Shown: positions 16,147 through 52,855, counted from the first letter of the stretch. The stretch: 64,000 nucleotides of DNA from Nitrospirota bacterium (GCA_963721805.1 CAVRJY010000001.1:448001-512000); one strand, 5' to 3'. Notes: generated from the letters alone by a model not told the origin. Translations and numbers: made by a program.

Positions 16147-16328
16147 AAAGCGCGCCAAATCGCTTGATACTGCGTTGGGCTTCAAAGACTCGCCCTCTAT
16201 GTACGTCACAGTACACCATCGGGCGGTCTTCTCGCCCTGCCTTGTCTGAAGACGATTTGGGCGCGCTTTCGGGGGGCACGGAAGAAGTTCGCCCCCCGCG
16301 CCCCACGAGGTCAACGGCTTTGATTTGA
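16147..16328 (-). repeat. Family A copy A3 (full length)
   Basis: Near-identical to 49127-49298 and 50718-50896; reverse complement of 17990-18170. Confidence 0.95.
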
Positions 16329-16740
16329 GGCACGTTCGGATGCGCGGCTTAGGTATAGTTATGCATTCCGCGCGCGTGCGCGCGCATTTTTTTTAGAGCG
16401 TTCAAATGAACAAACAAAACAAGCTTTAACCCTGCGGAATTTCATTGCTTTTTGGCGACCTCCGTGTTCATGCGTTCAGAAACAGTTTTCACTCTGTCCA
16501 TCGGTCACTGTCGTTACTTTCAGCGCCATCAAAATGAGCATATCAGCCTCATCCCGTATTGAAGCACATCGAAATGAAAAATGCGATAACCTATGGTTTA
16601 TATATAAACCGAAGTTCATAGGAAAAATTGTCCCCCGTGCGTTTTCTATTAACTTTCGATTAACTGTGGTTAATGAGGGCGGAAACCACTGTGATAAATA
16701 TCTGGAATACTCTAGGCGGTTGTGGTATCTTTGAAGCATG
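16329..16740 (-). repeat. Family C arm attached to A3
   Basis: 16331-16390 and 16637-16740 are reverse-complement matches to 32205-32264 and 31857-31960; 16575-16635 matches 39497-39556. Confidence 0.85.
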
Positions 16741-16874
16741 TTATTAATTAGCGCAGCGGAAGAAATTATCCTGCTTCTATGAGAGCCAGTCATCCATAAT
16801 TATGTCGATTGGAACAATCAATCTATCCTCGCTGAAGATATTTTTTAAATCACAGTTATTTGAGGAAATAACTC

Positions 16875-17114
16875 ATGCTTATGGGTTTTGCGACTTTTTT
16901 TGGCTATGGTACATACATGCCAGCAGCGCTTGTTAATCTTCCATATACTTGGCAATACGTGATGTTTTGCTTATCAGGCATGATACCCGGGTTGATTTGC
17001 ATGATTAAACCAAAGACAGTTTGGTTTGTGATAACACTTCCTTTTACAATTTTTATAGTCGCACTCGACATCAGGGTTGGGATTTATGCGATAAGTGAAT
17101 ATTTGCACCGTTGA
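16875..17114 (+). CDS. Small AT-rich membrane protein (cargo)
   Basis: 79-aa hydrophobic ORF, GAGG RBS, composition unlike neighbours. Confidence 0.55.
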   Translation: MLMGFATFFGYGTYMPAALVNLPYTWQYVMFCLSGMIPGLICMIKPKTVWFVITLPFTIFIVALDIRVGIYAISEYLHR

Positions 17115-17173
17115 TTTATCACGTGTAACATTGCCATCAAGTATCAAAAATTAGAAAAAGCGACTGAAGATTA

Positions 17174-17346
17174 TCTAATCATGCCGTTGACCGTTCGCAC
17201 GATTAGACAGAAGTTAAACTAAAGCGCGATAAAGCGCGTCAGACAAGGAAGGGCGAGAAAACCGCCCGACGGTGTACTTGGGCGTACTCCGAGGGCGCGT
17301 CTTTGAAGCCATGACGCAGTATCACGCGACTTTAGCGCGCTTTAAA
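17174..17346 (+). repeat. Family A copy A4 (subtype a)
   Basis: CTAATCATGCCGTTGACCGTTCGCACGATTAG...AAAGCGCGATAAAGCGCGTCAGACAAGG...CACGCGACTTTAGCGCGCTTT. Confidence 0.92.
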
Positions 17347-17351
17347 AAAGC

Positions 17352-17927
17352 CTACGAATTCAGCTTCTTCAAGACCCACGCGAAATTGTCGCCCAGATTG
17401 CGCATCGTTTCGATGCCTTCCGTGTCATTGGAGACCTCGCCGGGATTCCTGCCCACGCCGATGTTCCAGTACGACGAGCCCGGCATCACCATCTGAGCCT
17501 GCAGGAAGAAGAAGTTCATCGAACTAAGCACGGTCGTGGCACCGGCCCTGCGCTCCGCGCATATCGACGCGCCGACCTTGCCCTTGAACATCCAGTCGTT
17601 GGCGCGCGAGACCATCCCGGCCCGTTCGATTAACGCCTTCATACCGGCCGACATGTCCGCGAAGTAAGAGGGCGACCCTAGTATTATGCCGTCCGCGGAG
17701 AGCATCGCCTCTATGCACTCGTTTACGATGTCGCCCTTTACGGCGCAGCGTTTGTCCTTGTGCTCGAAGCACTTAAAACATCCTATGCAGCCGCCCGGAG
17801 CCCGGCCCGCGAGTTCCAGCAGTTCTGTCTCTATGCCATTGACGCTTAACCGCTCGAATACCGTGTTTATCATCGTCGCGGTGTTGCCGCCCTTGCGCGA
17901 GCTTCCGTTGATAGCTATAACCTTCAT
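17352..17927 (-). CDS. Iron-sulfur flavoprotein / NADPH-dependent FMN reductase family, paralog 1
   Basis: INGSSRKGGNT, CxxCxxC...C, DGIILGSPSYF. Confidence 0.92.
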   Translation of the reverse strand: MKVIAINGSSRKGGNTATMINTVFERLSVNGIETELLELAGRAPGGCIGCFKCFEHKDKRCAVKGDIVNECIEAMLSADGIILGSPSYFADMSAGMKALIERAGMVSRANDWMFKGKVGASICAERRAGATTVLSSMNFFFLQAQMVMPGSSYWNIGVGRNPGEVSNDTEGIETMRNLGDNFAWVLKKLNS

Positions 17928-17989
17928 GTATAGTCCTCCTTGGTAGGATTATTCTCGCACATTTTAAGGGATGATGCTACGGGGGCTTC

Positions 17990-18170
17990 AAACTAATGCC
18001 GTTGACCTTGTGGGGCGCGGGGGGCGTCCTTCGGCCGTGCCCCCCGAAAGCGCGCCCAAATCGGCTTCAGACAAGGCAGGGCGAGAAGACCGCCCGATGG
18101 TGTACTGTGACGTACATGGAGGGCGAGTCTTTGAAGCCCAACGCAGTATCAAGCGATTTGGAGCGCTTTC
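17990..18170 (+). repeat. Family A copy A5 (subtype b)
   Basis: AATGCCGTTGACCTTGTGGGGCGCGGGGGG...CCCCGAAAGCGCGCCCAAATCG...CGATTTGGAGCGCTTTC. Confidence 0.95.
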
Positions 18171-18220
18171 AGAGAAGCCAACAAGCAGGTTTAAGTGAAA
18201 CTCGTGGTATACTAGTTGTT

Positions 18221-18472
18221 ATGGATTTCTACGCCCGACTGGCACTGATAGTGGCCCTGTTCTCGTTCGCGTTCATACTGAACGTGCCGATGGGCTATCT
18301 GAGGACGAAGACCCGCAAGCTCTCGCTCAACTGGTTCCTCTGCGTGCACGCCACGATACCGGTGATAATCGTCAGCCGCCTAAGGTCCGAGCTCGACCTG
18401 AGGTACATACCTGTCTTCATCCTAGCCGCCATCGTCGGACAGGTCTTCGGCGGCCGCATCGAGCTGATATAG
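18221..18472 (+). CDS. Small membrane protein
   Basis: ATG 18221; LNVPMGYLR..WFLCVHATIP, about three TM segments; the upstream in-frame extension is repeat A5. Confidence 0.75.
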   Translation: MDFYARLALIVALFSFAFILNVPMGYLRTKTRKLSLNWFLCVHATIPVIIVSRLRSELDLRYIPVFILAAIVGQVFGGRIELI

Positions 18473-18475
18473 CCT

Positions 18476-19492: not shown

Positions 19493-20516
19493 ATGAAGGT
19501 CGCCCGCCTCTACTCTTTCACTGACATCCGAATCGAAGAAATGCCGATACCCGTGCCCGGAGAAGGCGAGGCCCTCCTGCGCACGCGCGCCTCGGGGATA
19601 TGCTCGGGCGACGTCATGCCCTGGTACATCGAGCGGAAGGCCCCGCTAGTGCTCGGCCACGAGCCCTCGGGCGAGATCGTGCAAGTCGGCCCCGGAGTGA
19701 GCGCGTTTAAGCCCGGAGACCGAGTCGCGGTGCACCACCACGCCCCGTGCGGCAGCTGCCGCCACTGCCTTCGCGGCGATACCGTGCAGTGCCCCACATG
19801 GCGCGCTACGCGGATCGTCCCCGGCGGTATGGCCGAGTATATCCTTATCCCTGCGATCAACCTCGCTAACGACACCCTGAAGCTCCCCGACGGCGTGAGC
19901 TTCGAGGACGGCACGCTCGTAGAGCCTCTGGGGTGCGTGATGAAGTCCATCGGACGCTCGGGAGCGCACGGCCGGGGACACCGTGCTCGTGATCGGCCTT
20001 GGGGTGATGGGCATGCTGCACCTGCTCGCGTTTAAGGCCCTCGGAGCCGGGCGCATCATAGGTGCCGACATGGTGCCGTACCGGCTTGCCAAGGCGCTGC
20101 AGCTCGGGGCCACGGACGTGATCGACGCCTCGAAGATGCCGACTCCAGAGGCGCTCAGGGAGCTGACCTCGGGCCGGATGGCTGATATCGTGATAGTCGG
20201 GCCGAACAGCGCCGGTGCGCTCGAAGATGGATTGAGTTGCGCCGCGCCGGGCGGGACGGTCGTGATGTTCACCCCTGTCAGGCCGGGCGAGAAGATCACG
20301 CTCGACCCCAACGAGCTTTATTTCAGGGACGTAAGCCTCGTCACGTCATACTCGACCGGGCCGGCCGAGACGCGCGCCGCGCTAGGGCTGATAGAGCGCG
20401 GGGCTGTGCGCGCGGAGATGGTTGTCACGCACCGCTTTGCGCTTGAGCGGACGGCCGAGGCATACCGCATCACGGCCGTGGCCGGAGAATCGCTTAAGTG
20501 CCTCGTAATTTTTTAG
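19493..20516 (+). CDS. Zinc-dependent (MDR family) dehydrogenase, frameshifted near 19965-19980
   Basis: N-half (ICSGD, GHEPSG, Zn Cys motif) and C-half (VIGLGVMG) lie in adjacent frames. Confidence 0.85.
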
Positions 20517-20591
20517 GTGATTTTCCCGCTGCGTTCTGATAGACTTAAATCCATCAGGTCCGTGATCTTCTGTCCTTGGGGGTAGTATATT

Positions 20592-20917
20592 TTGGAGATC
20601 GAGGGGTCGGCTACAGGTCTGCTTGAGATGTCTGCCCAGGCCACGGCTGCGTCCGCGCGCCGAGCCCGGCATCGATCCCCGCCGAGACCGGAGAGTTCCA
20701 GCGCGGCCGCACCACCAAAGACGGCGTAATCGACCTTACCAACCAGGACGGCGTCTGGGTCGAGGACGCGCAGGGACAGCCGGAGGGCACGACGTCGGCG
20801 CAGGGCAGACCCAGCAGCCTCGGGGCTGCGGCCAAGCAGCTGATCTACGACTGGCGCGGCAAGCCGGTCGAGATGAAAAAGACCTTCGCAGGCTCGCTCC
20901 TGAGCGTATACGCCTAG
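20592..20917 (+). CDS. Small hypothetical protein, probable frameshift near 20658
   Basis: TTG-EIEGSATGLLEMSAQATAASA joins an open frame ending ...LIYDWRGKPVEMKKTFAGSLLSVYA-TAG; not in the ORF track. Confidence 0.45.
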
Positions 20918-20950
20918 TCCCCCCTCGTTTGCCAGCCGGCGATAAACGCA

Positions 20951-29886: not shown

Positions 29887-29972
29887 ATGAATATTCTCCT
29901 TACAGTTTAGGCTGTGCGCATAAACTGAAACATATCACGCGCACCGCCCAACAATCAAGGGGTGGCCGCTTT

Positions 29973-30040
29973 TTCAAAGCGAGCCAAATCGCTTGATACG
30001 TCGTTGGGCTTCAATTTTACCAAGCGGGACTCGCCCTCTA
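29973..30040 (-). repeat. Family A copy A6 (truncated)
   Basis: TTCAAAGCGAGCCAAATCGCTTGATACGTCGTTGGGCTTCAA...GACTCGCCCTCTA. Confidence 0.85.
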
Positions 30041-30080
30041 ATCACGTCTCGTTTGCGTGAGGGTTTGCCCCTTCATTGGC

Positions 30081-30114
30081 CATAGTTAATCCAAAGTTAG
30101 TAGAAAACGCACGC
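30081..30114 (+). repeat. Family C core motif fragment
   Basis: ATAGTTAATCCAAAGTTAGTAGAAAACGCACGC matches 31928-31960. Confidence 0.8.
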
Positions 30115-30222
30115 CCCTTAACTTGCAATAGCGGTCAGCATATTACTATGATGGTAAATTAAAACGCTCTGTGCTTCAATGCAAAAGATTATCAGGTCTC
30201 GGAAGGCGCGGTGAAGTTAATC

Positions 30223-31083
30223 ATGAAAAAAATCTTCATACTCGGAGTCGGCTGCCAAAAAGGCGGCACAACATGGTTGCATAATTATCTTTCAAAGCAC
30301 CCGAGCTCCAATATGGGGTTCACAAAAGAGTACCATATATTCGACGCCCTCTACCTGCCTGAGTATGAGCGTTACCGTCACAGGACAACCGAGTATGCCA
30401 GCGCACTCATAAGAAAGTCAGAAAAATCCCTGCGCAGGCGCTTGCTGGAAATCAGGCTCCGTAAATTATTCCAGAGCGATATCAACAGATATTTCGACTA
30501 TTTCGCTAAAAAAGTCAACTCGTCGGATGAATTTACTTTTACAGGGGATATCACGCCGGAATATGCCGGTCTGTCGTCGGAAGTTTATGGGATCATTAAA
30601 AACGGGGCCGAATCAAGAGGGTTTGACGTGAAGGCCGTATTTATAATGAGGGACCCGGTCGAGCGCTGCATATCAGCCATGAAAATGCGGAGAAAACAGA
30701 TGAGATTGGACCTGACGGATGATGAAAACGCCTCGCTTATCAAGGTGTATTCCACGAGAGATTTTCAGTATCTTACGCGGTACGAAAGGACAATGAATAA
30801 CTTGGAGAGCGTATTTCCCGCCAAAGACATTTACTATAATTTTTATGAGAATCTTTTTAACCCGTCAACCATGGAAGAGATTACGGATTTATTGTCAGTG
30901 CCTTTCGTGCAACCGAATTTCAATAAGCGCAAAAATGCGTCGAAAACCAGCTTTCAGATCGATGAAAGCATTCGAAAAAGAGTTTTTGACTTTTACGGCG
31001 ATACGTATGATTTCATGGCCGGCCGCTACGGGAAAGATTACATTTCAAGCATATGGCCAAACTACCGGAACCTCTCAACCTGA
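30223..31083 (+). CDS. Sulfotransferase family protein (AT-rich cargo)
   Basis: GVGCQKGGTTWL PAPS-binding loop, KEYHIFD, GDITPEY, MRDPVER. Confidence 0.85.
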   Translation: MKKIFILGVGCQKGGTTWLHNYLSKHPSSNMGFTKEYHIFDALYLPEYERYRHRTTEYASALIRKSEKSLRRRLLEIRLRKLFQSDINRYFDYFAKKVNSSDEFTFTGDITPEYAGLSSEVYGIIKNGAESRGFDVKAVFIMRDPVERCISAMKMRRKQMRLDLTDDENASLIKVYSTRDFQYLTRYERTMNNLESVFPAKDIYYNFYENLFNPSTMEEITDLLSVPFVQPNFNKRKNASKTSFQIDESIRKRVFDFYGDTYDFMAGRYGKDYISSIWPNYRNLST

Positions 31084-31122
31084 TTCTCATTCCCCGTCTG
31101 CTGCGCCGCGCCTAACCCCCGC

Positions 31123-31303
31123 AAAGCGTGCGAAATCGCTTGATGCTGCGTTTGGGCTTCAAAGACTCGCCCTCGAAGTACGTATCAGTACGTCGTCGGG
31201 CGTTCTTCTCGCCCTGCCTTGTCTGAAGACGATTTGGGCGCGCTTTCGGGGGGAGAGGATAACGGAAGCCCCCCGCGCCCCACAAGGTCAACGGCTTGAT
31301 TAG
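31123..31303 (-). repeat. Family A copy A7
   Basis: Full-length match to the A consensus ending GGTCAACGGCTTGATTAG. Confidence 0.93.
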
Positions 31304-31348
31304 AAAGGGCTACGCCGAATTAAATAGAACAGCCCCCCATTATTTAAG

Positions 31349-31783
31349 TTAGTAGCTTGGAGGCTTATCTGTACAAAAAACGGAAGGCGTTGCTTTAAAT
31401 ATATCTTTGACATCAATAGGCAGCGCAAGTGTAAAGGGCTGATGACTAAGATCCTTTGCGTAATTCTCAAGAACAGTATATGTATATACGCCGCCTTGCG
31501 TGTTCGCGATATCTAATATGACGCTTGAATTTACTATATCAACTTTAGCAGCATTTACGGCTCTTCCCCGACGAAAATCAAAAATCATGCTCTTTCTTCC
31601 GTTAAGGCTGAAAATTAATACCGCTTTGCCCGAAGCTGTTGCACATGCTGTATAAAAAACAGGCGTCTTGGTTTGTTGTAGCTCAGCAAGGTAATTATCA
31701 GCAACAATATTAAACACTTCATCCTGTCCAAGTGACACACCTGTTGCAAGAAACATGAACACCAAAGCTATGAGAGATTTCAT
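31349..31783 (-). CDS. Secreted hypothetical protein (AT-rich cargo)
   Basis: MKSLIALVFMFLATGVSLG signal peptide; low-GC codon usage. Confidence 0.65.
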   Translation of the reverse strand: MKSLIALVFMFLATGVSLGQDEVFNIVADNYLAELQQTKTPVFYTACATASGKAVLIFSLNGRKSMIFDFRRGRAVNAAKVDIVNSSVILDIANTQGGVYTYTVLENYAKDLSHQPFTLALPIDVKDIFKATPSVFCTDKPPSY

Positions 31784-31856
31784 AACAAAAGGTGACGGGT
31801 CTATTTTTCTATTGCCCTTTAAATGGCGCAAGCCAGTCATCATCCCATTGCGCATC

Positions 31857-32264
31857 ATGCTCCAAAGATACCACAACCGCATTGAGTATGCCAGAGAATT
31901 TAAAGCGAATGCCCCTATTTATTAACTATAGTTAGTCGAAAGTTAGTAGAAAACGCACGCCTACAAAATAATTTGCCAGATATAAACCAAAGTTTGGTGG
32001 TTCTTGGTGTATATTGATTTCATGAGCATTATATGCACATATTTTATAAGCGGGACGGCGAAGCGATCTGGTCTCGCCGCCTGTTCGGATAATGGGCCAA
32101 AAACCGCGCTTTTTATCCGAACATCCGAACATGAGACTCGCAAACAATTTAACGATTCCAATATGTTAGCCTCGTTTTTACGCCCGACATCCGAACAGAA
32201 TCGGCAAAAACGCGCGCGCATGCGCGCGGAATGCGTAACTATACCTAAGCGCGGACATCCGAAC
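31857..32264 (+). repeat. Family C arm attached to A8
   Basis: Reverse-complement similarity to 50897-51230 over most of its length and to both ends of 16329-16740. Confidence 0.88.
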
Positions 32265-32440
32265 ATGCCGTTGACCACGTGGGGCGCGGGGGGCCTCCTT
32301 CGTCCGTGCCCCCCGAAAGCGCGCCCAAATCGGCTTCAGACAAGGCAGGGCGAGAAGACCGCCCGATGGTGTACTGTGACGTACATAGAGGGCGAGTCTT
32401 CGCAGCCCAACGACGTATCAAGCGATTTGGAGCGCTTTCA
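32265..32440 (+). repeat. Family A copy A8
   Basis: ATGCCGTTGACC...CGATTTGGAGCGCTTTCA. Confidence 0.95.
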
Positions 32441-32636
32441 AATCCGTATGACTATGTCATTGAAGGAGGCTTGCGGTAATTATTATACTATTGACTATAT
32501 GAACGAACCCTGATCCATCTGCTAATTATAGCCGTGTGCTGTTCTGCAGCCTCCCCGTACTTGGGCGGCTGATTGCCGTTCAGAGATTTCCGACGCCACA
32601 GGTACCTACTCCCTCTGCGGTGACAGTAAAGCTACC

Positions 32637-33281
32637 GTGGTGCTCGTCGGAGATAAGCGCATCCCTATCGCCGTTCCCGCGACCGGTATCATGACATCTA
32701 TGAGGCCCGGCCTCCTGTTGGTCTATTGGCAGTCCTTCACCCCCGAGCGGATCGGCATGGACGTGGACTACGCGCTCTATACGCTTGACGTCGCCTCGGG
32801 CGAGCTTAAGAAGGTCTACTCCGAAAGCCGCATAGGTTACGGCCGCAGGTTCAAGCCCTCGGCATACAGGGGCTGGGCCGGCGCATCGCCGACCGCTACC
32901 GATGCCCTGCTCGTGGACTTTGTCGTCCCGCCGAACATTCCGCCCCACATGAGCTTCATCGCGGTCGATTACCTTACGGGCAAATTTCGCGAACTCGGCC
33001 GCTCTGACGAGCTCGGCATATCGCCAGAGGCCACATGGAGCCCCGACGGCAGCGCCGTCGCGTTTCAGATCGGGGCCGTGGCCGGGCGGTATCTAAGCCT
33101 CAATACGGATACCGGCGAGATCACGCAGCTGGACGCGAAGCCTCCTATTGGCCCTGCCGTAGGCCCCGAGGCGAAGGCTAAGATCCTGAAGCTCAAGGGC
33201 CTGCTGATGGACGGACTGATAGGTGCGGACGAGTACCGCGCGAGGCGGCTAAAGCTGATAGAAGCGGGCGGGGCGCGATGA
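32637..33281 (+). CDS. Hypothetical protein with propeller-like segment and C-terminal SHOCT-like helix; true start probably near 32499 with frameshifts
   Basis: TWSPDGSAVAF; tail LKLKGLLMDGLIGADEYRARRLKLI; signal-like LIHLLIIAVCC upstream in another frame. Confidence 0.6.
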   Translation: MVLVGDKRIPIAVPATGIMTSMRPGLLLVYWQSFTPERIGMDVDYALYTLDVASGELKKVYSESRIGYGRRFKPSAYRGWAGASPTATDALLVDFVVPPNIPPHMSFIAVDYLTGKFRELGRSDELGISPEATWSPDGSAVAFQIGAVAGRYLSLNTDTGEITQLDAKPPIGPAVGPEAKAKILKLKGLLMDGLIGADEYRARRLKLIEAGGAR

Positions 33282-36647: not shown

Positions 36648-38063
36648 ATGAGCGAGACTGATTTTAAGGCCGCATCGGTGATCGTCGTTGGCGACGCGAT
36701 GGTCGACAAGTACCTGATCGGACGCGTCAGAAGGCTCTCGCCCGAGGCCCCGGTGCCTATAGTCGAGGTAGGCCGCACCGTGCTCGCCCCTGGGGGCTGC
36801 GCCAACGTCGCCAACAATGTAGTGCACCTGAGGGCCCGCGCCCACCTCGTCTGTGCGGCAGGCCGGGACGCCGGGCGCGCTGACCTGGAGCGCATGCTCG
36901 GCGAGCGCAAGATCGACCACACGCTCATCGACGCCGGGCTCCCGACGACCACCAAGGTCCGCGTCATAGGCGACCGCCAGCAGATGATCCGCCTCGACTT
37001 CGAGGAGGTCGCCCCGATAGACGACGCCTCTACCGAGGGCATCGCGGCCGCGGCCGAGGCGCTCATGGCCGGCGCTGGCGTGCTCGTGATCTCCGACTAC
37101 GGCAAGGGCGTATGCACCCCCGAACTCACCGCCCGGCTCATAGCAGCGGCTAACAGACGGGCCATACCCTCTATCGTCGACCCCAAGGGCACGGACTGGA
37201 TGAAGTACGCCGGGGCGACCATAGTGACCCCGAACCTCAAGGAGCTCGGGCGCGTCATGGGCGTGGAACTCAAGAACGAGGACGCGACGGTCGATGCCGC
37301 CGGGCGCGACGCCATAACTCGCTTCGGGCTTAAGACCCTGCTGGTCACGAGATCCGAGCGCGGGATGACGCTCCTGAGCCCGGACGGCGGCTGCCTGCAC
37401 GTCCCGGTCGAGGCGCGCGAGGTCTTCGACGTCTCCGGCGCGGGGGATACCGTGGTCGCAACGCTCGCCGTAGCTCTGGCATCCGGCATCGACATGCCCC
37501 ACGCGGTGAAGCTATCGAACAAGGCCGCCGCTATAGTGGTCGGGAAGTCCGGCACCGCGCCTATCGAGTACGAAGAACTCATGGACTCGGCGCGCGGCGC
37601 GAGCAGAAAGCGCATGACGCTCGAGCGTCTGATCTCGCGCGCCGCGGAGCACCGGCGCGGCGGGGACAAGATCGTATTCACGAACGGCTGCTTCGATATA
37701 CTGCACAGGGGGCATGTCTCGCTCCTGAGGGAGGCCAAGAAGCTCGGCGACGTGCTCGTGGTGGGGATCAACTCCGACCGCTCGGTGCGCTCATTGAAGG
37801 GCGAGGGCCGCCCTGTCAATACCGAGGAGGACCGCGTGGAGCTATTGGCGGGACTGGAGTTCGTGGACTACGTCGTGGTCTTCGACGAGGAGACGCCGGA
37901 GAATATACTGCGGGCGCTCAGGCCGGAGGTGCTCGTCAAGGGCGGCAATTACGCGGTCGAGCAGGTAGTGGGCAGGGAATTCGCAGGCCGCACCGTAATC
38001 GTCCCAATGCTCGAAGGTTACTCGACTACCCGCATCATAAGTGCCATCCGAGAAGATACGTAA
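36648..38063 (+). CDS. hldE: Bifunctional heptose-7-P kinase / heptose-1-P adenylyltransferase
   Basis: RLSPEAPVP, SDYGKG, DVSGAGDT, FTNGCFDILHRGH. Confidence 0.96.
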   Translation: MSETDFKAASVIVVGDAMVDKYLIGRVRRLSPEAPVPIVEVGRTVLAPGGCANVANNVVHLRARAHLVCAAGRDAGRADLERMLGERKIDHTLIDAGLPTTTKVRVIGDRQQMIRLDFEEVAPIDDASTEGIAAAAEALMAGAGVLVISDYGKGVCTPELTARLIAAANRRAIPSIVDPKGTDWMKYAGATIVTPNLKELGRVMGVELKNEDATVDAAGRDAITRFGLKTLLVTRSERGMTLLSPDGGCLHVPVEAREVFDVSGAGDTVVATLAVALASGIDMPHAVKLSNKAAAIVVGKSGTAPIEYEELMDSARGASRKRMTLERLISRAAEHRRGGDKIVFTNGCFDILHRGHVSLLREAKKLGDVLVVGINSDRSVRSLKGEGRPVNTEEDRVELLAGLEFVDYVVVFDEETPENILRALRPEVLVKGGNYAVEQVVGREFAGRTVIVPMLEGYSTTRIISAIREDT

Positions 38064-38080
38064 TCGATAATCGCCCCCTC

Positions 38081-38250
38081 TTTCAAAGCGCGCTAAACTC
38101 GCGTGATACTGCGTCAGGGCTTCAAAGACGCGCCCTCGGAGTACGTCTCAGTACACCGTCGGGCGGTCTCCTCGCCCTTCCTTGTCTGACGCGCTTTATC
38201 GCGCTTTAAATTTCAACTGCCTAATCGTGCGAGCGGTCAACGGCATTGAC
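38081..38250 (-). repeat. Family A copy A9 (subtype a)
   Basis: Reverse complement closely matches A4. Confidence 0.93.
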
Positions 38251-38300
38251 TTTATCCAGCGTTGGTGCGAAAATCGGACATATTCCAAGGAGGAATTAAT

Positions 38301-38876
38301 ATGAAGGTTATAGCGATCAACGGAAGCAGCCGCAAGGGCGGCAACACCGCAACGATGATAAATACCGTATTCGAGCGGCTAAACGCCGAGGGCATCGAGA
38401 CCCGGATGATCGAGCTTGCGGGCAGGGCGCCGCAGGGCTGCATAGGGTGCTTTAAGTGCTTCGAGAGCAAGGACAGGCGCTGCGCGGTGAAGGGCGATAT
38501 CGTTAACGACTGCATCGAGGCGATGCTCGCCTCAGACGGCATACTGCTGGGCTCGCCCACGTACTTCGCGGACATGTCGGCCGGGATGAAGGCGTTAATC
38601 GAGCGGGCCGGGATGGTCTCGCGCGCAAACGGCTGGATGTTCAAGGGCAAGGTAGGCGCTTCTATCGCGGTCGAGCGCAGGGCCGGGGCGACCTCCGTGC
38701 TCAGCTCTATGAACTTCTTCTTCCTGCAGGCCCAGATGGTCATGCCGGGCTCGTCGTACTGGAACCTCGGCGAAGGGAGGAACCCCGGAGAGTTCAGCGC
38801 GGACCAGGAAGGCATCGAAACCATGCGCAACTTAGGCGACAATTTCGCCTGGGTTCTTAAAAAGCTCAACTCTTAA
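38301..38876 (+). CDS. Iron-sulfur flavoprotein / FMN reductase family, paralog 2
   Basis: 191 aa, colinear with and highly similar to 17352-17927. Confidence 0.92.
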   Translation: MKVIAINGSSRKGGNTATMINTVFERLNAEGIETRMIELAGRAPQGCIGCFKCFESKDRRCAVKGDIVNDCIEAMLASDGILLGSPTYFADMSAGMKALIERAGMVSRANGWMFKGKVGASIAVERRAGATSVLSSMNFFFLQAQMVMPGSSYWNLGEGRNPGEFSADQEGIETMRNLGDNFAWVLKKLNS

Positions 38877-38886
38877 GGGGGCGGTT

Positions 38887-39062
38887 CTAAAGCCGAGCTA
38901 AATCGCTTGATGCGTTGTCGCGGCGTCGGAAATCCGTCCTCGATGTACGCCTAAGTACACCGTCGGACGTTTTCCTCGCCGATTCTAGCCTCAAGACGAT
39001 TTATCGCGCTTTAGTGTGGCCCCTGCCTGATCGCGCGAGTGGTCAACGGCATTGATTAGAGC
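38887..39062 (-). repeat. Family A copy A10 (divergent subtype a)
   Basis: AAAGCCGAGCTAAATCGCTTGAT...GTACGCCTAAGTAC...GATTTATCGCGCTTT...GGTCAACGGCATTGATTAGAG. Confidence 0.85.
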
Positions 39063-39178
39063 GGCCTAATTGCTGCCGCCCCGTGGAAGTGTGTCAATAG
39101 GAGTTCATCATTTCAAATAAATAGGCTGTACTGTTATTCCCTATATAATTTCAGAGAACGGGGGTGAGGTAAACGCTA

Positions 39179-39415
39179 TTATCCGGAAGAGTTAATTTTC
39201 CTTCTTGCCATGTCCACTACACGGTGGACGTCTCCAAGACATCACTTTCCGAGAGGATTAGTAAGGTGACAGTGACAGGCACCTTTCTGTTTCTCGGCTT
39301 TTATTCTGTTTAGGATAGAAGATTCGCCATTATTGGCAATAACATCGGCCTCGATATCGGATTCCGTATATCCGAAGCAGTAGCAAATTTGCTTATTTTC
39401 CTTGAGCAGCTTCAT
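39179..39415 (-). CDS. BFD-like/CopZ-type [2Fe-2S] small selenoprotein (in-frame UGA at 39242-39244)
   Basis: MKLLKENKQICYCFGYTESDI...GACHCHLTNPLGK-U-CLGDVHRVVDMARRKINSSG; the UGA sits at the first Cys of the NPxGxCC motif. Confidence 0.82.
39203..39239 (-). promoter_or_regulatory. Putative bacterial SECIS element
   Basis: TCTTG..GTCCAC-CGTGTA-GTGGAC..CAAGA stem-loop; loop starts 18 nt after the UGA and has G at position 2. Confidence 0.75.
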
Positions 39416-39465
39416 GCATGATTATAACATGGCCCAATCATACCAACAAAATTTGGCCTCTTTTC

Positions 39466-39556
39466 ACTAACTATAGTTAACCAAAAAATTCACGCGCATC
39501 AATTTTTCCTATGAACCTCGGTTTATATATAAACCGTAGGTTATCACTTTTTTCAT
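39466..39556 (+). repeat. Short family C arm attached to A11
   Basis: TAACTATAGTTA palindrome and CGGTTTATATATAAACCG palindrome; reverse-complement match to 16575-16673. Confidence 0.85.
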
Positions 39557-39750
39557 TGGGGGCGCGGGGGGTCGGCGGCGGAGCCGCGTTAACCCCCGAA
39601 AGCGAGCCGCAATCGGCTTCAGACAAGGGGGACGGTTGGCCCCAGTCTTTTAGGCGAGGTGCCCGTGGCACCCCGATGGTGTACAGTGACGCACATGGAG
39701 GGCGAGGCTTCGAAGTCAACGAAGTATCAAGCGATTTGGTGCGCTTTGAA
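39557..39750 (+). repeat. Family A copy A11 (with B-type hairpins inserted)
   Basis: GGGGGCGCGGGGGG...GAAAGCG..AATCGGCTTCAGACAAGG...GTATCAAGCGATTTGGTGCGCTTTG. Confidence 0.9.
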
Positions 39751-39824
39751 AGAGGAAGCGTTGACATTACCAGAGAAGCTTGCTTTAATTAACGGTACAT
39801 TCCAGTTCACAGGAGGCTATTAAC

Positions 39825-40595
39825 TTGGCGATAAAGGTGGGCATTATTGGCGGTTCCGGCATGGACGATCCGAAACTGCTAAAAGACAAGAAGGATAAGG
39901 CCGTCAAGACCCCCTGGGGCGCGCCCTCGTCGAACCTCTCCATAGGGACGATTGGCGGCGTGGCGGTCGTAATACTGGCGCGCCACGGCAAGGACCACTC
40001 GATCTACCCGACCGGCGTGAACTTCCGCGCCAACATCAGCGCGCTTCAGGCCGAGGGGGTCACGCACATACTCGCGACCACTGCCGTCGGCTCGCTACGG
40101 GAGAAGATCAAACCCGGAGACCTCGTCTTCCCGGACCAGTTCATCGACCACACGAAGCTCCGGGCGCTTACGTTCTTCGACAAAAACAAGGTCGTGCACA
40201 CCCCGATGGCGGACCCGTTCTGCGCCGCGCTCAGGAAGATCCTCATCGACTGCGCAAAGTTGCTGAAGCTCCGCCATCACAGGCAGGGCACCGTGATCAC
40301 GATTGAGGGCCCGAGGTTCTCGACGCGCGCAGAGTCGCACATGTTCCGGCAGTGGGGCGCGGACGTGATCAACATGTCCACGGTGCCCGAGGTCTCTCTG
40401 GCGCGTGAGGCCGGGATATGCTACCAGTCCATCGCGATGTCCACGGACTACGACTGCTGGAAGGAAAACGAGGAGCCCGTGACCTGGGAGATGGTGCTGG
40501 GCACGATGAACCGCAACGCGGAAAACGTGCGCAAACTGTTAGTGAAGGCCCTGCCGCACATAACCGATACCCGCTGCTGCTCCGGCGGCCACTGA
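39825..40595 (+). CDS. mtnP: S-methyl-5'-thioadenosine phosphorylase
   Basis: GIIGGSG, LARHG, TTAVGSL, IEGPRFSTRAES, STDYDCW. Confidence 0.93.
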   Translation: MAIKVGIIGGSGMDDPKLLKDKKDKAVKTPWGAPSSNLSIGTIGGVAVVILARHGKDHSIYPTGVNFRANISALQAEGVTHILATTAVGSLREKIKPGDLVFPDQFIDHTKLRALTFFDKNKVVHTPMADPFCAALRKILIDCAKLLKLRHHRQGTVITIEGPRFSTRAESHMFRQWGADVINMSTVPEVSLAREAGICYQSIAMSTDYDCWKENEEPVTWEMVLGTMNRNAENVRKLLVKALPHITDTRCCSGGH

Positions 40596-40608: not shown

Positions 40609-41142
40609 ATGCCGATAAAATCGAAGATTCGCACCGTGCCGCACTACCCCAAGAAGGGGATCATGTTTAGGGATATCACGACGCTCATTAAGGACCCTGT
40701 CGGGTTCCGCCTGATGATCGACACCATCACGCAGCACGTGATCGAGGCCAGGCTACAGTTCGACGTGATCGTCGGGATCGAGAGCCGCGGGTTCATCATG
40801 GGCGGCGCGTTGGCATATACCTTGGGCAAGGGGTTTGTTCCCATAAGGAAAAAGGGGAAGCTCCCGGCCAAGACCGTGCAGCAGGAGTACCAGCTTGAGT
40901 ATGGCACCGACACTATTGAGATCCATAAGGACGCGATCAAGAAGGGCCAGCGGGTCCTGCTCGTAGACGACCTGCTCGCCACCGGCGGGACCGCGCTGGC
41001 CTCGGCCGCGCTGATCGAGAAGCTCGGCGGCAGGATCGTCGAGATGCTCTTCATCGTCGACCTGCCGGACGTGGGCGGCGCCAAGAGGATCAAGGCCAAG
41101 AAGTACAAGATGTTCGCGCTGACGGAGTTTGAGGGCGACTGA
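40609..41142 (+). CDS. apt: Adenine phosphoribosyltransferase
   Basis: FRDIT, ESRGF, RKKGKLP, LEYG, VDDLLATGGT. Confidence 0.97.
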   Translation: MPIKSKIRTVPHYPKKGIMFRDITTLIKDPVGFRLMIDTITQHVIEARLQFDVIVGIESRGFIMGGALAYTLGKGFVPIRKKGKLPAKTVQQEYQLEYGTDTIEIHKDAIKKGQRVLLVDDLLATGGTALASAALIEKLGGRIVEMLFIVDLPDVGGAKRIKAKKYKMFALTEFEGD

Positions 41143-41149
41143 GGGGTGC

Positions 41150-41352
41150 GAAAGCGCACCAAATCGCTTGATACTGCGTTGGGCATCGAAGACTCGCCCT
41201 CTATGTACGCCCAAGTACACCATCGGGGTTCCTCGGGCACCTCTCCTGAAGAAAGGGCCAGTCGGCCCCTTGTCTGAAGCCGATTTGGGCGCGCTTTGCG
41301 GGGAGTAGCGAAGCCCCCGCGCCCCCAAGCCCCCAAGGTCAGTGGCATTGAT
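41150..41352 (-). repeat. Family A copy A12 (with B-type hairpins inserted)
   Basis: GAAAGCGCACCAAATCGCTTGATACTGCGTTGGG...AAGGTCAGTGGCATTGAT. Confidence 0.92.
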
Positions 41353-41358
41353 ATGAAA

Positions 41359-41409
41359 AGTGAGAGGGGCTTTTGCCCCGCGAATAGGAGCGAGGGGGCG
41401 CTGCCCCCT
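41359..41409 (-). repeat. Repeat family B, partial inverted copy
   Basis: Reverse complement reads CCTATTCGCGGGGCAAAAGCCCCTCTCAC. Confidence 0.75.
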
Positions 41410-47044: not shown

Positions 47045-47136
47045 AGCCGTTGACCTTGCGGGGGGCCGACTGGCCCATCTCACTATTCGCGGGGTCATGG
47101 ACCCCTCTCACTATTCGCGCCATAGCGCTCATCTCT
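47045..47136 (+). repeat. Family A 5' stub followed by repeat family B copy
   Basis: GCCGTTGACCTTGCGGGGGG then GGGGCCGACTGGCCC..CTATTCGCGGGGTCATGGACCCC.. Confidence 0.85.
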
Positions 47137-47140
47137 TATT

Positions 47141-47316
47141 AAAGCCTTTGACCTTGTGGGGTGCGGGGGGCTTTTTTATTCTCTCCCCCCGAAAGCGCGC
47201 CCAAATCGTCTTCAGACAAGGAACAACGAGCGGACCGCCCGGAGGCGTATATAGACATACGTCGAGGACGAGGCCGCGAGTTGTGACGCAGTATCAAGCG
47301 ATTTGGGGCGCTTTCA
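47141..47316 (+). repeat. Family A copy A13
   Basis: GCCTTTGACCTTGTGGGG...GAAAGCGCGCCCAAATCGTCTTCAGACAAGG...CGATTTGGGGCGCTTTC. Confidence 0.9.
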
Positions 47317-47325
47317 AAAAACCAT

Positions 47326-49119: not shown

Positions 49120-49126
49120 GGCTTTT

Positions 49127-49298
49127 AGAAAGCGCTCCAAATCGCTTGATACTGCGTTGGGCATCAAAGACTCGCCCTCTATGTACGTCACAGTACACCA
49201 TCGGGCGGTCTTCTCGCCCTGCCTTGTCTGAAGACGATTTGGGCGCGCTTTCGGGGGGCACTGCAAAGAACGCCCCCCGCACCCCGAAGGTCAACTGC
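49127..49298 (-). repeat. Family A copy A14
   Basis: Near-identical core to A3 and A15. Confidence 0.95.
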
Positions 49299-49407
49299 TC
49301 AGTTGGATGAATTATTGAGCGTGTTAGCCTCATTCCGTATTGAATCATATGGCGGGGCCGAAAGTCGATAAAGCGGAGCTGATGATCTGACAATAAATTA
49401 CGGGTGC

Positions 49408-50667
49408 TTACGCGGATTCCTTTTCTCTGGAAACCACAGCCCCTAGGGCTTGAAGTTTAAGTTCCATGGATTCGTATCCCCGGTCGAGGTGGTATATGCG
49501 GTGGACATTGCTGCGCCCCTTGGCCGCGAGGGCTGCGACTACTAATGATGCGCTTGCGCGGAGGTCCGTGGCCATAACGTCCGCGCCGGTGAGTTCGGCC
49601 ACGCCGCGCACGGTCGCGATATGCCCGTTGAGGCTGATGTCCGCGCCCATGCGCTGAAGCTCTGCCACGTGCATAAAACGGTTCTCGAATATGTTTTCGC
49701 TTATCACGCTCGTGCCGTCCGCGATGCACATGAGCGCCATGAACTGGGCCTGCATGTCGGTCGGGAACCCGGGGTAGGGCCGGGTCGAGATGTCGCACGC
49801 GGTCAGGCAATCCGGCCCCTTCACGCGGAGTCCGGTGGCCGTGGGCTTGAGCTTCACCCCGGCCTCCATGAACTTCAGCATCACCGCGTCATCGGGCGCG
49901 TCCTCGATCCCACGGAGCGTTACCTCGCCGCCGGTTATCGCGGCCGCTGCCATGAACGTGCCCGCCTCGATGCGGTCCGGGATCACGGTGTGGTCAAAGG
50001 GCTTAAGCTCATCGACGCCGCTGATCTCTATGACGCTCGTGCCCGCGCCGGTGATCTTCGCGCCCATCGAGCGAAGCAGCGCGGCTGTGTATATGACCTC
50101 CGGCTCCATGGCCGAGTTCTCCAGCACGGTGGTGCCTTTGGCGAGCGCTGCGGCCATCATCAGATTCTCGGTGCCGGTGACGGTCGGTACGTCGAAGTAT
50201 ATCCTTGCCCCGTGGAGGCGCTTGGCCTTTGCAGAGACATACCCGCCCTCGAGCGTGATCTTCGCGCCCATCTTTTCCAGTCCCATCAGGTGCAGGTTAA
50301 TCGGCCTCGCGCCTATCGCGCAGCCGCCGGGTAGCGATACCCGTGCTCGTCCGTATCTCGCGACCAGCGGGCCCAATACGAGCACGGACGCGCGCATCGT
50401 CTTTACGAGTTCATACGGGGCCTCGAAGTTGCCGACCGCGCCGGTATCTATCTCTGCCACGCCGTCTTCGTGCGTAAACCCGCAGCCCATGTTGCCCAGA
50501 AGCCTGCCCATAGTGCTAATATCCATCAGCCGCGGGACGCGCTTAAGGCGGCTTTTGCCGCGGGCGAGCAGGGCGGCCGTAAGCGCCGGGAGCGCGGCGT
50601 TCTTCGAGCCGCCGATCTCGACCGAGCCCTTTAATTTAACCCCGCCCTCGATAACAAACTTATCCAT
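49408..50667 (-). CDS. murA: UDP-N-acetylglucosamine 1-carboxyvinyltransferase
   Basis: [37 protein letters not shown]. Confidence 0.98.
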
Positions 50668-50717
50668 CGTCAGAAATCATATCATTTGCGCATAAACGCG
50701 GGCAAACGGTGAGTGTT

Positions 50718-50896
50718 AAAGCGCTCCAAATCGCTTGATACTTCGTTGGGCATCGAAGACTCGCCCTCTATGTACGTCACAGTACACCATCGGGCGGTCT
50801 TCTTGCCCTGCCTTGTCTGAAGACGATCTGGGCGCGCTTTCGGGGGGCGAGGATGACGGACGCCCCCCGCGCCTCGTGGTCAACGGCATGATTTGA
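50718..50896 (-). repeat. Family A copy A15
   Basis: Full-length match to the A consensus. Confidence 0.95.
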
Positions 50897-51230
50897 GGGC
50901 CGGTCATACGCATATATACGCATACCGCGCGCGCGTTTTATTTTATGTGTTCGGATGTTTGAGGCAAATAAGCGGATAATCCTATGGAAAACATCGTTTT
51001 TCTGAGTCCGGCGCTGTTCGGATGTTCGGATAAAAAGCGTGAGATTTGCCGATCTATCCGAACACCCGGCGCAACCTCTTGCTTCCCCCGCCCCGCCCAT
51101 CAAAAATGCTCTTATCTTACTCATGCCACCACTATACACCAAAGACCACCAAACTTTGGTTTATATCCACCGAAAAAAATAAGGTCCGTGCGTTTTCTAT
51201 TAACTTTCGACTAACTACTGTTAATTAAGG
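50897..51230 (-). repeat. Family C arm attached to A15
   Basis: TGTTCGGATGTTCGGATAAAAAGCG, ACCACCAAACTTTGGTTTATAT, CGTGCGTTTTCTATTAACTTTCGACTAACTACTGTTAAT; inverted match to 31915-32230. Confidence 0.88.
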
Positions 51231-51402
51231 GCTCTTTGCAACGGAAAAGATTGGCTTAAATGCGATAGCTGCTTATGCTAATGGCAGGGTGGACAAAGGC
51301 ATAACCCATACCGCAAGCTCAGAGCTCTCCCACATCAGAAATCGGGCTCCGCCCTATTTTCCCACAGAACCTTTCTTTTGTGGAATTATTTATAATTTGT
51401 GC

Positions 51403-51648
51403 ATGCCCAATGTGCTCAGAGTCGGGAAGTACAGGTTTTTCTTTTTCAGCAAGGAGGGCGGTGAACCGCCGCACATACATGTCGAATCAGGCGATGATTA
51501 CGCCAAGTTCTGGCTATCGCAACTTTCTCTTGCAAAATCCATAGGGTATAATAGTAAAGAACTCGGGGAAATACGGATTATCGTCGCGGACAACGTCGAG
51601 ATGATGAAGGAGAAATGGAATGAGCACCTCAACCGCAAAATCGGCTGA
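51403..51648 (+). CDS. DUF4160 protein (putative toxin of a TA-like pair)
   Basis: MPNVLRVGKYRFFFFSKEGGEPPHIHV..AKFWL..WNEH. Confidence 0.88.
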   Translation: MPNVLRVGKYRFFFFSKEGGEPPHIHVESGDDYAKFWLSQLSLAKSIGYNSKELGEIRIIVADNVEMMKEKWNEHLNRKIG

Positions 51649-51859
51649 ACCCATGGCCAGCGCGGTCTGGTTCGACGCGGACAAGCTCCATGTGCGCCTG
51701 CTCGACGGCAGGGAGATAGGCGTCCCGCTTGAGTGGTTCCCAAGGCTCCGCGACGCGTCCGAGGCCCAGCGCGCCAATTGGAGGCTAATCGGCAGGGGCA
51801 TCGGCATACATTGGGACGAGATCGACGAGGACGTTTCGGTGGAGAGCATCCTGTCCTGA
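51620..51859 (+). CDS. DUF2442 protein (putative antitoxin)
   Basis: V.LLDGREIGVPLEWFPRL..A...R.NW..GIHWDEIDEDVSV. Confidence 0.9.
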   Translation: MSTSTAKSAEPMASAVWFDADKLHVRLLDGREIGVPLEWFPRLRDASEAQRANWRLIGRGIGIHWDEIDEDVSVESILS

Positions 51860-51950
51860 GTTGACCGCCCTCGGCGTGGGCATAATGCGGAGAACAAGGC
51901 GGCCCTATTTCCTGTATTAAATGTGGTTGGTGAGAGGTAAAATCGGAAAG

Positions 51951-52616
51951 ATGGTCACTGACGAATTTCACTTCGATTTGAACGCAAAGCGCACTCGCCT
52001 TAGCGACGACGATCTTATGATCGCATTGCAGTCTGCTGCTGAGACGCTTGGTGAGGGTTACTTTACGTCCATACAATACAATGCACTCCCCGGAAAACGG
52101 CCTCATTCTGACACAATAAGCGATCGCTTCGGTTCATGGAAAAAGGCACTGACACTCATTGGAATCGCTGGAGGTCGAGAAAGAAAGTATTCGCCCGAAA
52201 CGCTCATTGACAATATAGAAAACATTTGGAGGAAGTTGGGTTATCCGCCTGGCAAGAGGCAACTCTCAACCTGTGGGGAGAGAATTTCCGAGTCTCCATA
52301 CAAGAATCACTGGGGTAGCGTGCGTGCCGCATGCGAAGCACTTGAAGAGTTTCACTCTGGAAGAATCTCAAGAGAGCAACTGCTCAAAGGTAAGCCTAAT
52401 GAACCAACCCGTACAACAATCCCGTTGAAAGATAGATGGGCTGTATTGAAGCGCGACAACTATAGTTGTGCAAAGTGCGGTGCAAGCCCATCCAATGATC
52501 ACAACGTTGAACTAGAGGTTGACCACAAATTCCCCGTCGCAAGAGGTGGAGAAAATAGCCTTACTAATCTTCAAACACTCTGTCGAAAATGTAACCAAGG
52601 GAAGAAAGACAGATAA
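51951..52616 (+). CDS. HNH endonuclease with N-terminal homing-endonuclease-associated repeats
   Basis: Repeats ending RFGSWKKAL and HWGSVRAA; VLKRDNYSCAKCG, LEVDH..P..GG, NLQTLCRKCN..K. Confidence 0.88.
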   Translation: MVTDEFHFDLNAKRTRLSDDDLMIALQSAAETLGEGYFTSIQYNALPGKRPHSDTISDRFGSWKKALTLIGIAGGRERKYSPETLIDNIENIWRKLGYPPGKRQLSTCGERISESPYKNHWGSVRAACEALEEFHSGRISREQLLKGKPNEPTRTTIPLKDRWAVLKRDNYSCAKCGASPSNDHNVELEVDHKFPVARGGENSLTNLQTLCRKCNQGKKDR

Positions 52617-52689
52617 TTCCGGCCAACAAAAGACTGTTCAGCAGTCCACTCGAGTAGAAAATAGGAACGGCTCTATCCAATCAAACCCC

Positions 52690-52855
52690 TTCAACGGGGG
52701 CGCGGGGGGCTCCGTTATCCTCTCCCCCCGAAAGCGCGCCCAAATCGTCTTCAGACAAGGCAGGGCGAGAAGACCGCCCGATGGTGTACTGAGACGTACA
52801 TAGAGGGCGCGTCTTCGCAGCCCAACGCAGTATCAAGCGATTTGGAGCGCTTTGA
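52690..52855 (+). repeat. Family A copy A16
   Basis: GGGGGCGCGGGGGG...CGATTTGGAGCGCTTTG. Confidence 0.93.

Follow-up and report, generated by a model that had tools for sequence, protein, structure and literature searches.

The DNA described here, referred to as the window, is a 64,000-nucleotide (nt) stretch (G000:C1:448001-512000) from a Nitrospirota bacterium whose assembly comprises 2.78 Mb in 9 contigs. Its guanine-plus-cytosine (GC) content dips at 16-18, 30-32, 39, 51-53 and 63-64 kb, and a repeat scan returned many direct and inverted copies of a ~180-nt repeat, here called A. The AAAGCGC end of A is termed its tail and the GGTCAACGGCAT end its head, with '+' denoting the tail-to-head direction. 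Four loci share one layout: an A copy joined at its head to a non-coding module (the C arm), then cargo genes, then a second A copy in the opposite orientation. These loci had been proposed in an initial annotation of the window, and a covariance model (CM) and nhmmer place all of them where it put them, give or take a few bases. The heads point inward at all four loci, as it had described, and the cargo, which also fits its account, comprises a 79-amino-acid (aa) hydrophobic open reading frame (ORF), a 177-aa ORF without a family, a 78-aa ORF with an in-frame TGA, and DUF4160, DUF2442 and HNH genes. A C arm is present at loci 1, 2 and 4, and at locus 3 only its distal third. No transposase or integrase family was detected among the 68 ORFs of the window, in agreement with that annotation. 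The four loci are instances of a genome-wide rule, in which neighbouring A copies with facing heads bracket low-GC DNA.

A profile built from 59 full copies of A and run on the whole genome with nhmmer gave 227 matches. Near-full copies, defined by at least 100 model positions, number 198 (103 on the plus strand and 95 on the minus strand); A is ~190 nt long, with a folded region of roughly 165 nt, and occupies ~1.4% of the genome. The 15 window copies, once aligned, show two clearly distinct stem versions. When 101 copies were aligned with a covariance model (R1), an alignment that is fitted to the model and therefore somewhat favoured by it, A formed a long hairpin with 94.1% of cells paired and with changes on both sides in 21 of 31 pairs. 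Compensated cells numbered 246, compared with 68.8 in shuffles, and the observed values were reached by 0 of 500 shuffles; slid controls had 28-53% of cells paired. The hairpin is thus supported by compensatory changes. RNAalifold, applied to a hidden Markov model (HMM) alignment of 172 copies, missed the stem, probably through misalignment of the divergent copies, and the model-based alignment was substituted. Rfam gave no match at the gathering score over the whole window, and none at E values up to 10 within 16000-18300.

The ends of the A core pair as a basal stem, AAAGCGC...GCGCTTT, and so constitute terminal inverted repeats of the sort that characterise miniature inverted-repeat transposable elements (MITEs). 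A is also an extragenic palindromic repeat of high copy number, as are repetitive extragenic palindromic (REP) elements, but it is much longer than these. As read from the sequence, the head holds the palindrome TCAA-N5-TTGA. A itself has no U tract 3' of its hairpins. When A is read from tail to head, 56 of 175 copies have a terminator-like hairpin with a T run within 130 nt past the head, compared with 15 on the other strand. On the tail-to-head strand G-U pairs exceed A-C pairs by 90 to 59, of which one pair contributes 33; counted by position the figures are 12 and 9. The copies are unevenly spread, with 24 BLAST matches in the 97-kb contig C5, and with A dense in the first 513 kb of C1 and at 641-765 kb and sparse beyond 860 kb.

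The arrangement of neighbouring copies, taken over all contigs, is strongly polar. Neighbours with facing heads ('+-') lie closer than 3 kb in 46 of 64 cases and those with facing tails ('-+') in 5 of 61, so that the layout goes far beyond chance (binomial P=2e-9 for 46 against 5 close pairs). Among neighbours of like orientation, 10 of 37 '++' and 11 of 30 '--' pairs are as close. Within 5 kb there are 54 '+-' pairs, six of them back-to-back doublets with 0-43 nt between the copies and 48 filled with 477-4170 nt of DNA, which we refer to as islets. The interior of a filled pair has a lower GC content than its flanks in 47 of 48 cases (0.34-0.59 vs 0.57-0.66), and the contrast between low-GC cargo and GC-rich core genes drawn in the initial annotation extends to the genome. 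Close pairs of the other three kinds mostly enclose DNA of normal GC content (0.53-0.65, with two exceptions) and long core-like ORFs. Past paired heads the mean GC content is 0.45-0.49 over 600 nt, and from 100 nt past the tails it is 0.61-0.62. Ninety of the 198 copies lie outside close pairs.

With core genes approximated by ORFs rich in GC at third codon positions, 136 of 198 copies have a core ORF no more than 60 nt from the tail, which is at its 3' end in 100 copies and at its 5' end in 36; in 118 of 198 the nearest core ORF is at least 500 nt from the head. Of the 102 cases in which A adjoins a 3' end, 86 have the stop codon between 5 nt inside the AAAGCGC tail motif and 29 nt before it, and the stop codon is sometimes part of that motif (TGAAAGCGC, TAAAGCGC). 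TAG is the stop codon in 49 of 93 genes that end at an A tail (for example those at 17352 and 47326 in the window), compared with 33% of all core ORFs (chi-square P=3e-5), and TGA is depleted. Given this excess of TAG, the data suggest that A often supplies the stop codon of the adjoining gene.

The 48 filled pairs occupy junctions of the (3',3') type in 19 cases, (3',5') in 22 and (5',5') in seven, so that at least one tail faces a gene start in 29. The empty doublets stand at (3',5') junctions, between tandem genes, in five of six cases. If only copies near a gene end are counted, 8 of 49 islet-less solo copies have a tail that faces a 5' end, as against 36 of 96 islet-associated copies (Fisher P=0.012). 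Convergent junctions are enriched in filled pairs (19 of 48, compared with 164 of 862 intergenic spacers; P=0.001), and a passive contribution to the layout is therefore real. Even so, filled pairs are more than two 3'-end elements meeting. Head subtypes pair at random in filled pairs, with no left or right specialisation; all six empty doublets are heterotypic, as one would predict from an intolerance of long, near-perfect palindromes.

The C arm, a non-coding module, measures about 350-440 nt. Searches with nhmmer found 55 copies of at least 100 model positions, and 48 of them adjoin an A head and share its orientation. The module has a GC hairpin followed by T8, terminator-like when read from A, short repeats of GTTCA or GTTCGGAT that define two subtypes, and a GGTTTATATATAAACC palindrome. 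In an alignment of 14 copies it stops abruptly at TTAAC-N4-GTTAAT, beyond which the copies are unrelated. A scan for sigma-70 promoters at locus 1 found none within the C arm (3 in total, against 2.3 expected); sigma-54 and alternative promoters were sought by eye only.

A single C arm is present in 29 of the 48 islets and no C arm in the other 19; no islet has two (permutation P=0.002). The initial annotation had the cargo reading away from the arm, and this is so at all four window loci; genome-wide it is only a bias, in which the cargo beside the head reads away at 20 of 27 C-bearing heads compared with 28 of 61 C-less heads (Fisher P=0.02). The first ORF past a full C arm (n=34) reads away in 21 cases and toward it in 11 (P=0.11 for 21 vs 11), with two arms lacking an ORF within 500 nt. 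In the 29 one-C islets the majority of the cargo reads away from C in 20, toward it in seven and shows no majority in two, and the A copy on the C side faces the start of a core gene in 19, as it does at all four window loci. Because of the single C arm, the cargo bias and the position of the C-side A at a gene start, the islets are asymmetric units, much as first drawn.

A scan of 40 islets yielded 105 ORFs, 62 of them without a Pfam family. Toxin-antitoxin genes among the cargo encode DUF4160/DUF2442, three HepT (two with an MNT-type partner), MazE, PemK/MazF, ParE and Phd, and two Gp49 (one beside a helix-turn-helix gene). Cargo of defence type includes a methylase-Mrr fusion, KAP NTPase, PLD, HEPN and a protein kinase; SRAP, GNAT, ankyrin and phage tail collar genes and insertion sequences (ISs) were also found. 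The only DNA common to islets consists of ISs and C arms, and no other cargo occurs at two loci.

Transposases other than those of the IS30, IS481 and IS200 types were not seen in the 40 islets, although no exhaustive IS census was made. The IS481-family element is present in four identical copies. Six identical IS200 copies (C1:42301, C1:366622, C1:1252034, C1:1452182, C4:138543 and C4:146508) each sit after TTAAC or CTAAC, two of them at the first TTAAC of the distal C-arm motif. Three identical 1.08-kb copies of an IS30-family element with a 326-aa transposase (NF033563, 279 bits) lie at C1:387254-388340, 649325-650408 and 759638-760721, each in the descending arm of an A hairpin and at one and the same point of it; the shared position therefore indicates site-specific targeting of A. 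By eye, and with no alignment or search behind the comparison, the ends of these three IS types did not seem to resemble those of A.

A further module, B, is built of GCGAATAGTGAGAGG units in tandem, with a GC hairpin after each, and is found at 16 of 198 A heads in a single orientation throughout. On the opposite strand the B units, as at 849-947 and 47060-47158 in the window (GC hairpin, then TCTCACTATTCG), look by eye like the right end of IS200 in L047/L048 (hairpin, then TTCACTATTG). The B module may be a REP-like derivative of IS200.

Plain DNA searches of 30 relatives did not find A, and for the C arm they returned only a 35-nt match to the hairpin and T run in one genome (G013). Model R1, run on 150 other genomes of the phylum, detected related hairpins in 20, with a proportion of 9 of 11 in one family and with 6-16 matches per genome in the five genomes examined. 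Their stems covary and their loop nucleotides are conserved (ATAC..CGT, CCTC, GTAC, CCTTGTCT), and their tails and heads differ. A strict pattern for the core was also matched, with support from the model, at three loci in two metagenome-assembled genomes labelled Deltaproteobacteria and Desulfobacteraceae. At eight loci of relatives that hold 13 related elements, at least six of the elements lie directly 3' of a co-oriented stop codon. So far, the bracketing of islets and the C arm are specific to the genome studied here. An exact 24-mer of the A tail had no match in Joint Genome Institute (JGI) metagenome contigs, and therefore close relatives are not represented there. The C-arm pattern had no match in viral contigs; one viral-contig locus (L066) with a single match to the core pattern was unsupported by the covariance model and was treated as chance.

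In one relative (G037), two related hairpins flank an arginine decarboxylase gene. At the orthologous locus in three congeners (93-95% protein identity) and in two other genera the hairpins are absent, even with search filters off. One of the two was inserted in the overlap of two convergent stop codons with both reading frames kept, one of them now ending at a TAG from the insert, and the alignment reveals no clear target duplication. The related core hairpin has thus been gained or lost between close species at this locus. Hairpins of this family (f22; L060, G037:C4:324500-331000) comprise little beyond the hairpin itself and end in ~17-nt terminal inverted repeats (TACGAACGTAAGAAATG).

Tests for mobility of the A-cargo-A unit gave no sign of movement. 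Flanking direct repeats of at least 8 nt are no commoner than in shuffled flank pairs (at least 10 nt: 4/198 vs 6/590 in the control), the single 16-nt repeat being at C5:73518. As the exact termini of A are uncertain, this comparison bears on repeats of 8 nt and longer rather than on MITE-type target duplications of 2-5 nt; a possible TTAAT repeat stands at one of the G037 elements. The two members of an A pair are 0.745 identical compared with 0.735 for random copies (P=0.28). These results favour neither recombination at the heads nor a passive origin of the islets over the other.

We suspect, with a probability of about 0.4, that head-to-head A copies form slots into which C-plus-cargo modules have been recombined. 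A would be a self-propagating, hairpin-forming intergenic repeat, of the MITE kind or of the kind of REP doublets that form hairpins (REPINs), which settles tail-first at gene ends. Where two copies meet head-to-head, a slot would arise between core genes; in this genome it is these places that hold low-GC accessory DNA. Modules of C arm plus cargo would then be inserted or exchanged, presumably at the A heads, through a recombination reaction that draws on the repeats. This might involve a trans-acting site-specific enzyme that recognises the palindromic head and the motifs at the C end, or else an exchange of A-flanked segments driven by homology; the A-cargo-A unit as a whole would probably not transpose. 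In this scenario, the slot layout may mark an undescribed way of placing accessory genes into a chromosome. We consider it unlikely that A and the C arm are the cis parts of a dispersed 'scattered integron', in which a trans-acting recombinase would swap C-plus-cargo modules and the repeats would insulate core genes. The initial annotation had leaned toward a gene-capture platform resembling an integron or a MITE-bounded composite. The recurrent, polar order of a non-coding A-plus-C unit, cargo and an inverted A, with no more than one C arm and no local enzyme, fits such a platform, but there is no sign that the A-cargo-A unit moves. The cargo content is likewise integron- or dif-module-like, but the repeats are inverted and dispersed, and A alone is REPIN- or MITE-like and mostly solo in other genera. 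A recombinase, HUH or REP-associated tyrosine transposase (RAYT) gene flanked by the same repeat, a possibility raised in that annotation, was not found.

Several results weigh against recombination at slots. For RAYT, NF047646 had no match over its cut-off and PF01797 matched only the six identical IS200 copies (the assembly is 94% complete), and none of the seven PF00589 matches to tyrosine recombinases in the genome was seen at an islet or an A-plus-C composite. The related elements of other genera lack a conserved GGTCAACGGCAT head motif, and the 13 elements at eight loci of relatives stand among housekeeping genes, mostly solo and without low-GC islets, so that the association with islets may be a local peculiarity or a result of passive geometry. 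The 19 filled pairs between convergent genes occupy places where independent 3'-end elements would meet head-to-head anyway. This is the only genome of its genus, and its relatives in the family have not kept synteny: in the three that possess both murA and the PALP gene, for instance, the two genes are on separate contigs, and a search with PALP had no match in G001 or G003. Two freshwater-sediment sequencing runs, in which the shares are small, have contigs of 150-430 nt, none of which bridged a junction; the reads leave the cargo at 16808-17075 uncovered, together with parts of core genes, and so are uninformative.

Much of this could also be understood if the islets were a by-product, with no cassette mechanism: A would insert tail-first behind stop codons, foreign DNA would later enter past the heads, and islets between direct repeats would be deleted, leaving the inverted pairs as survivors. 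The stop codons at the tail motif, the location of 41 of 49 islet-less solo copies near 3' ends, the elements behind co-oriented stops and without islets in relatives, the enrichment of convergent junctions and the pair partners no more alike than random copies all agree with such an origin. We nevertheless regard it as somewhat unlikely, given that it does not account for the tails that face gene starts at 29 filled pairs and five of six empty doublets, that survivorship leaves the excess of heads-in over tails-in pairs unexplained, and that neither the single, never double, C arm nor the bias of the cargo away from it follows from it. If instead the A pair served as the long terminal inverted repeats of a non-autonomous composite transposon or mobile insertion cassette, the A-cargo-A unit would be cut and pasted by a transposase encoded elsewhere. 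Inverted copies do enclose transposase-less cargo at 48 loci, the head-to-head doublets resemble a MITE without cargo, and the f22 hairpins combine terminal inverted repeats with presence or absence at one congener locus. However, target duplications of at least 8 nt do not exceed the control, partners are unlike and head types random, no cargo recurs at two loci, the IS ends of the genome are (by eye only) unlike A, and solo copies are common. The lack of an excess of these duplications, the unlike partners, the random head types and the finding of neither a RAYT nor a recombinase at islets therefore argue against a composite transposon, which we consider quite improbable.

A role in the expression of core genes would explain other observations: selection might retain A at islet borders for an RNA or DNA hairpin that shields core genes from transcription or silencing spreading out of AT-rich foreign DNA, or that stabilises the 3' ends of core mRNAs. 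The fixed orientation of A relative to core genes, the terminator-like sites past the heads, the conservation of fold and loop nucleotides across families of the phylum and the modest excess of G-U over A-C on the tail-to-head strand are consistent with a boundary of this type. Against it, A lacks a U tract after its hairpins, and the G-U excess stems largely from one pair. Close congeners do without the elements at the corresponding locus, where they are therefore dispensable, which also counts against a boundary role; we hold it to be highly unlikely as the explanation of the layout.

Among described systems, the nearest analogues are REPs, bacterial interspersed mosaic elements (BIMEs) and REPINs for A, and dif modules for the layout of alternating orientation, and each fails at least one defining feature. 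According to PMC3116915 and PMC3337134, REP/BIME and REPIN-RAYT elements are, like A, high-copy extragenic palindromes with long hairpins located mainly at gene 3' ends, and they form mosaics with other short motifs, as A does with B and C. REPs are also targets of ISs, as PMC1525189 describes, and here an IS30-family element occupies one fixed A position. A differs in its length of ~190 nt, in loops conserved across families of the phylum and in the lack of a RAYT over the cut-off. A strict head/tail polarity toward accessory islets, together with a C arm, is to our knowledge not a feature of REPs. The pdif sites that bound dif modules are 28-bp XerC/D sites, and the cargo classes of these modules are comparable to the islet cargo. 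As described in PMC6449649, PMC13141974 and PMC10132070, the dif (pdif) modules of Acinetobacter plasmids resemble the islets in having boundary sites of inverse orientation that are targeted by ISs, and no module enzyme. Unlike pdif sites, the borders here are 190-nt structured repeats on a chromosome, and by eye no dif-like sequence was recognised in the head.

Mobile insertion cassettes and MITE composites, as presented in PMC6199540 and PMC5444012, are similar to the islets in carrying passenger genes, but no transposase, between inverted terminal repeats. The islets differ from them in having no parent IS recognised by eye as sharing their ends, no excess of target duplications of at least 8 nt, no repeated cassettes and unrelated partners. 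Integrons possess an attI/Pc platform upstream of small, mostly promoter-less cargo of toxin-antitoxin or unknown type, and their sites are structured and palindromic. The C arm is likewise a non-coding platform upstream of such cargo, and the border sites are structured and palindromic. Unlike in integrons, no IntI was seen beside the platform, the sites are inverted rather than direct, and the cassettes are dispersed singly rather than arrayed. A literature search found these analogues and no description of the A element.

If the slots are true recombination sites, they would represent a new route by which a small genome could file and exchange toxin-antitoxin and defence genes, independent of tRNA-gene integrases and classical integrons, and the 48 islets would provide a ready test set. 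Even if the islets arose passively, A is an uncatalogued family of structured repeats with a covariation-supported fold that current repeat and RNA annotation pipelines overlook. The elements, C arms and cargo of the window are listed in Table 1.

Table 1. A copies, C arms, B modules and cargo in the window (positions from its first nucleotide; CM, covariance model score)
Feature	Position	Strand	Context and evidence
A copy (solo) with B module	921..1121, B at 849-947	-	tail at stop of sigma-54 activator gene 1137-2462(-); CM 125.8 bits, repeat family D9, Pfam
Three tandem 83-nt copies of the A tail half (8381-8629), then A head remnant	8381..8740	+	from stop of gene 7492-8385 (LPG_synthase_C); families D4/D5/D11; CM 8558-8740, 43.2 bits
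A3, head fused to C arm	16141..16331	+	tail 81-86 nt from icd start (14976-16061, -); CM 211.7 bits
C arm, full	16300..16743	+	hairpin and T8 at 16369-16385, GTTCA-type repeats, GGTTTATATATAAACC, distal TTAAC-N4-GTTAA; nhmmer, terminator scan
Cargo 1, 79-aa hydrophobic ORF	16875..17114	+	GC 0.39; no Pfam family
A4, divergent subtype without GC hairpin	17170..17349	-	tail 1-2 nt from stop of FMN reductase gene 17352-17927(-); CM 167 bits
A5	17985..18175	-	94% complementary to A3; head toward FMN reductase start, tail toward alcohol dehydrogenase (ADH) operon; inverted pair I2; CM 212.8 bits
Decayed A tail fragment (29969-30014) and distal C-arm fragment (30055-30123)	29969..30123		beside low-GC sulfotransferase-like gene 30211-31083; repeat family D5, Pfam
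A7, left border of cassette 2	31117..31308	+	CM 185.8 bits
Cargo 2, 177-aa ORF	31349..31882	-	GC 0.41; no family
C arm, full, fused to A8 head	31852..32285	-	nhmmer
A8	32254..32444	-	tail toward 5' side of gene 32637-33281(+); CM 203.7 bits
A9	38079..38257	+	tail after PfkB/cytidylyltransferase stop at 38063; head toward second FMN reductase 38262-38876; CM 167.3 bits, Pfam
A10, left border of cassette 3	38884..39063	+	tail after FMN reductase stop; CM 155.5 bits
Cargo 3, 78-aa ORF, one in-frame TGA	39179..39415	-	translation; NCBIfam NF047645 56.7 bits, NF045877 32 bits, both below cut-off
C arm, partial (model positions 264-380 only)	39452..39557	-	nhmmer
A11, with apical insertion	39532..39753	-	tail 72 nt from start of phosphorylase gene 39825-40595(+); CM 128.2 bits, alignment
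A12 (solo)	41145..41359	+	tail directly 3' of stop of gene 40609-41142; CM 155.3 bits
A13 (47131-47320) with B module at head (47060-47158)	47060..47320	-	tail 6 nt from uvrC stop; CM 191.9 bits, repeat family D9
A14 (solo)	49123..49311	+	polarity exception: head toward murA stop, tail toward uvrC 5' end; CM 201 bits
A15	50712..50900	+	tail 47 nt from murA start (49408-50667, -); CM 197.9 bits
C arm, second subtype (GTTCGGAT repeats), fused to A15 head	50871..51242	+	nhmmer, alignment
Cargo 4, DUF4160 and DUF2442 genes, HNH endonuclease gene with HNH_repeat	51289..52616	+	Pfam
A16	52673..52859	-	tail 54 nt from stop of PALP gene 52915-53820(-); CM 196.5 bits
A17 (62982-63160), opening a fifth cassette, GC 0.36	62982..64000	+	extends past window to A-plus-C composite, C1 512684-513289; CM 157.7 bits

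The array at 8381-8740 looks like a slippage or deletion derivative of A. In cargo 3 the in-frame TGA stands in a G-K-U-C context, and the sub-threshold matches are to CopZ-N-terminal-like 2Fe-2S-binding models, one of them annotated as a (seleno)protein family. The two FMN reductase genes, 17352-17927(-) and 38262-38876(+), are 83% identical over 591 nt, and both have an A tail at the stop and an A head ~5-60 nt before the start. A4 and A9 are 93% alike, above the similarity of their adjoining FMN reductase genes. Some core genes of the window are seemingly split or fused by frameshifts, including a zinc ADH in two ORFs (19493-20513), the PALP enzyme in two ORFs (52915-54268) and CTP synthase/KDO8P synthase domains over three overlapping ORFs (55106-57599); these are either assembly indel errors or pseudogenes.

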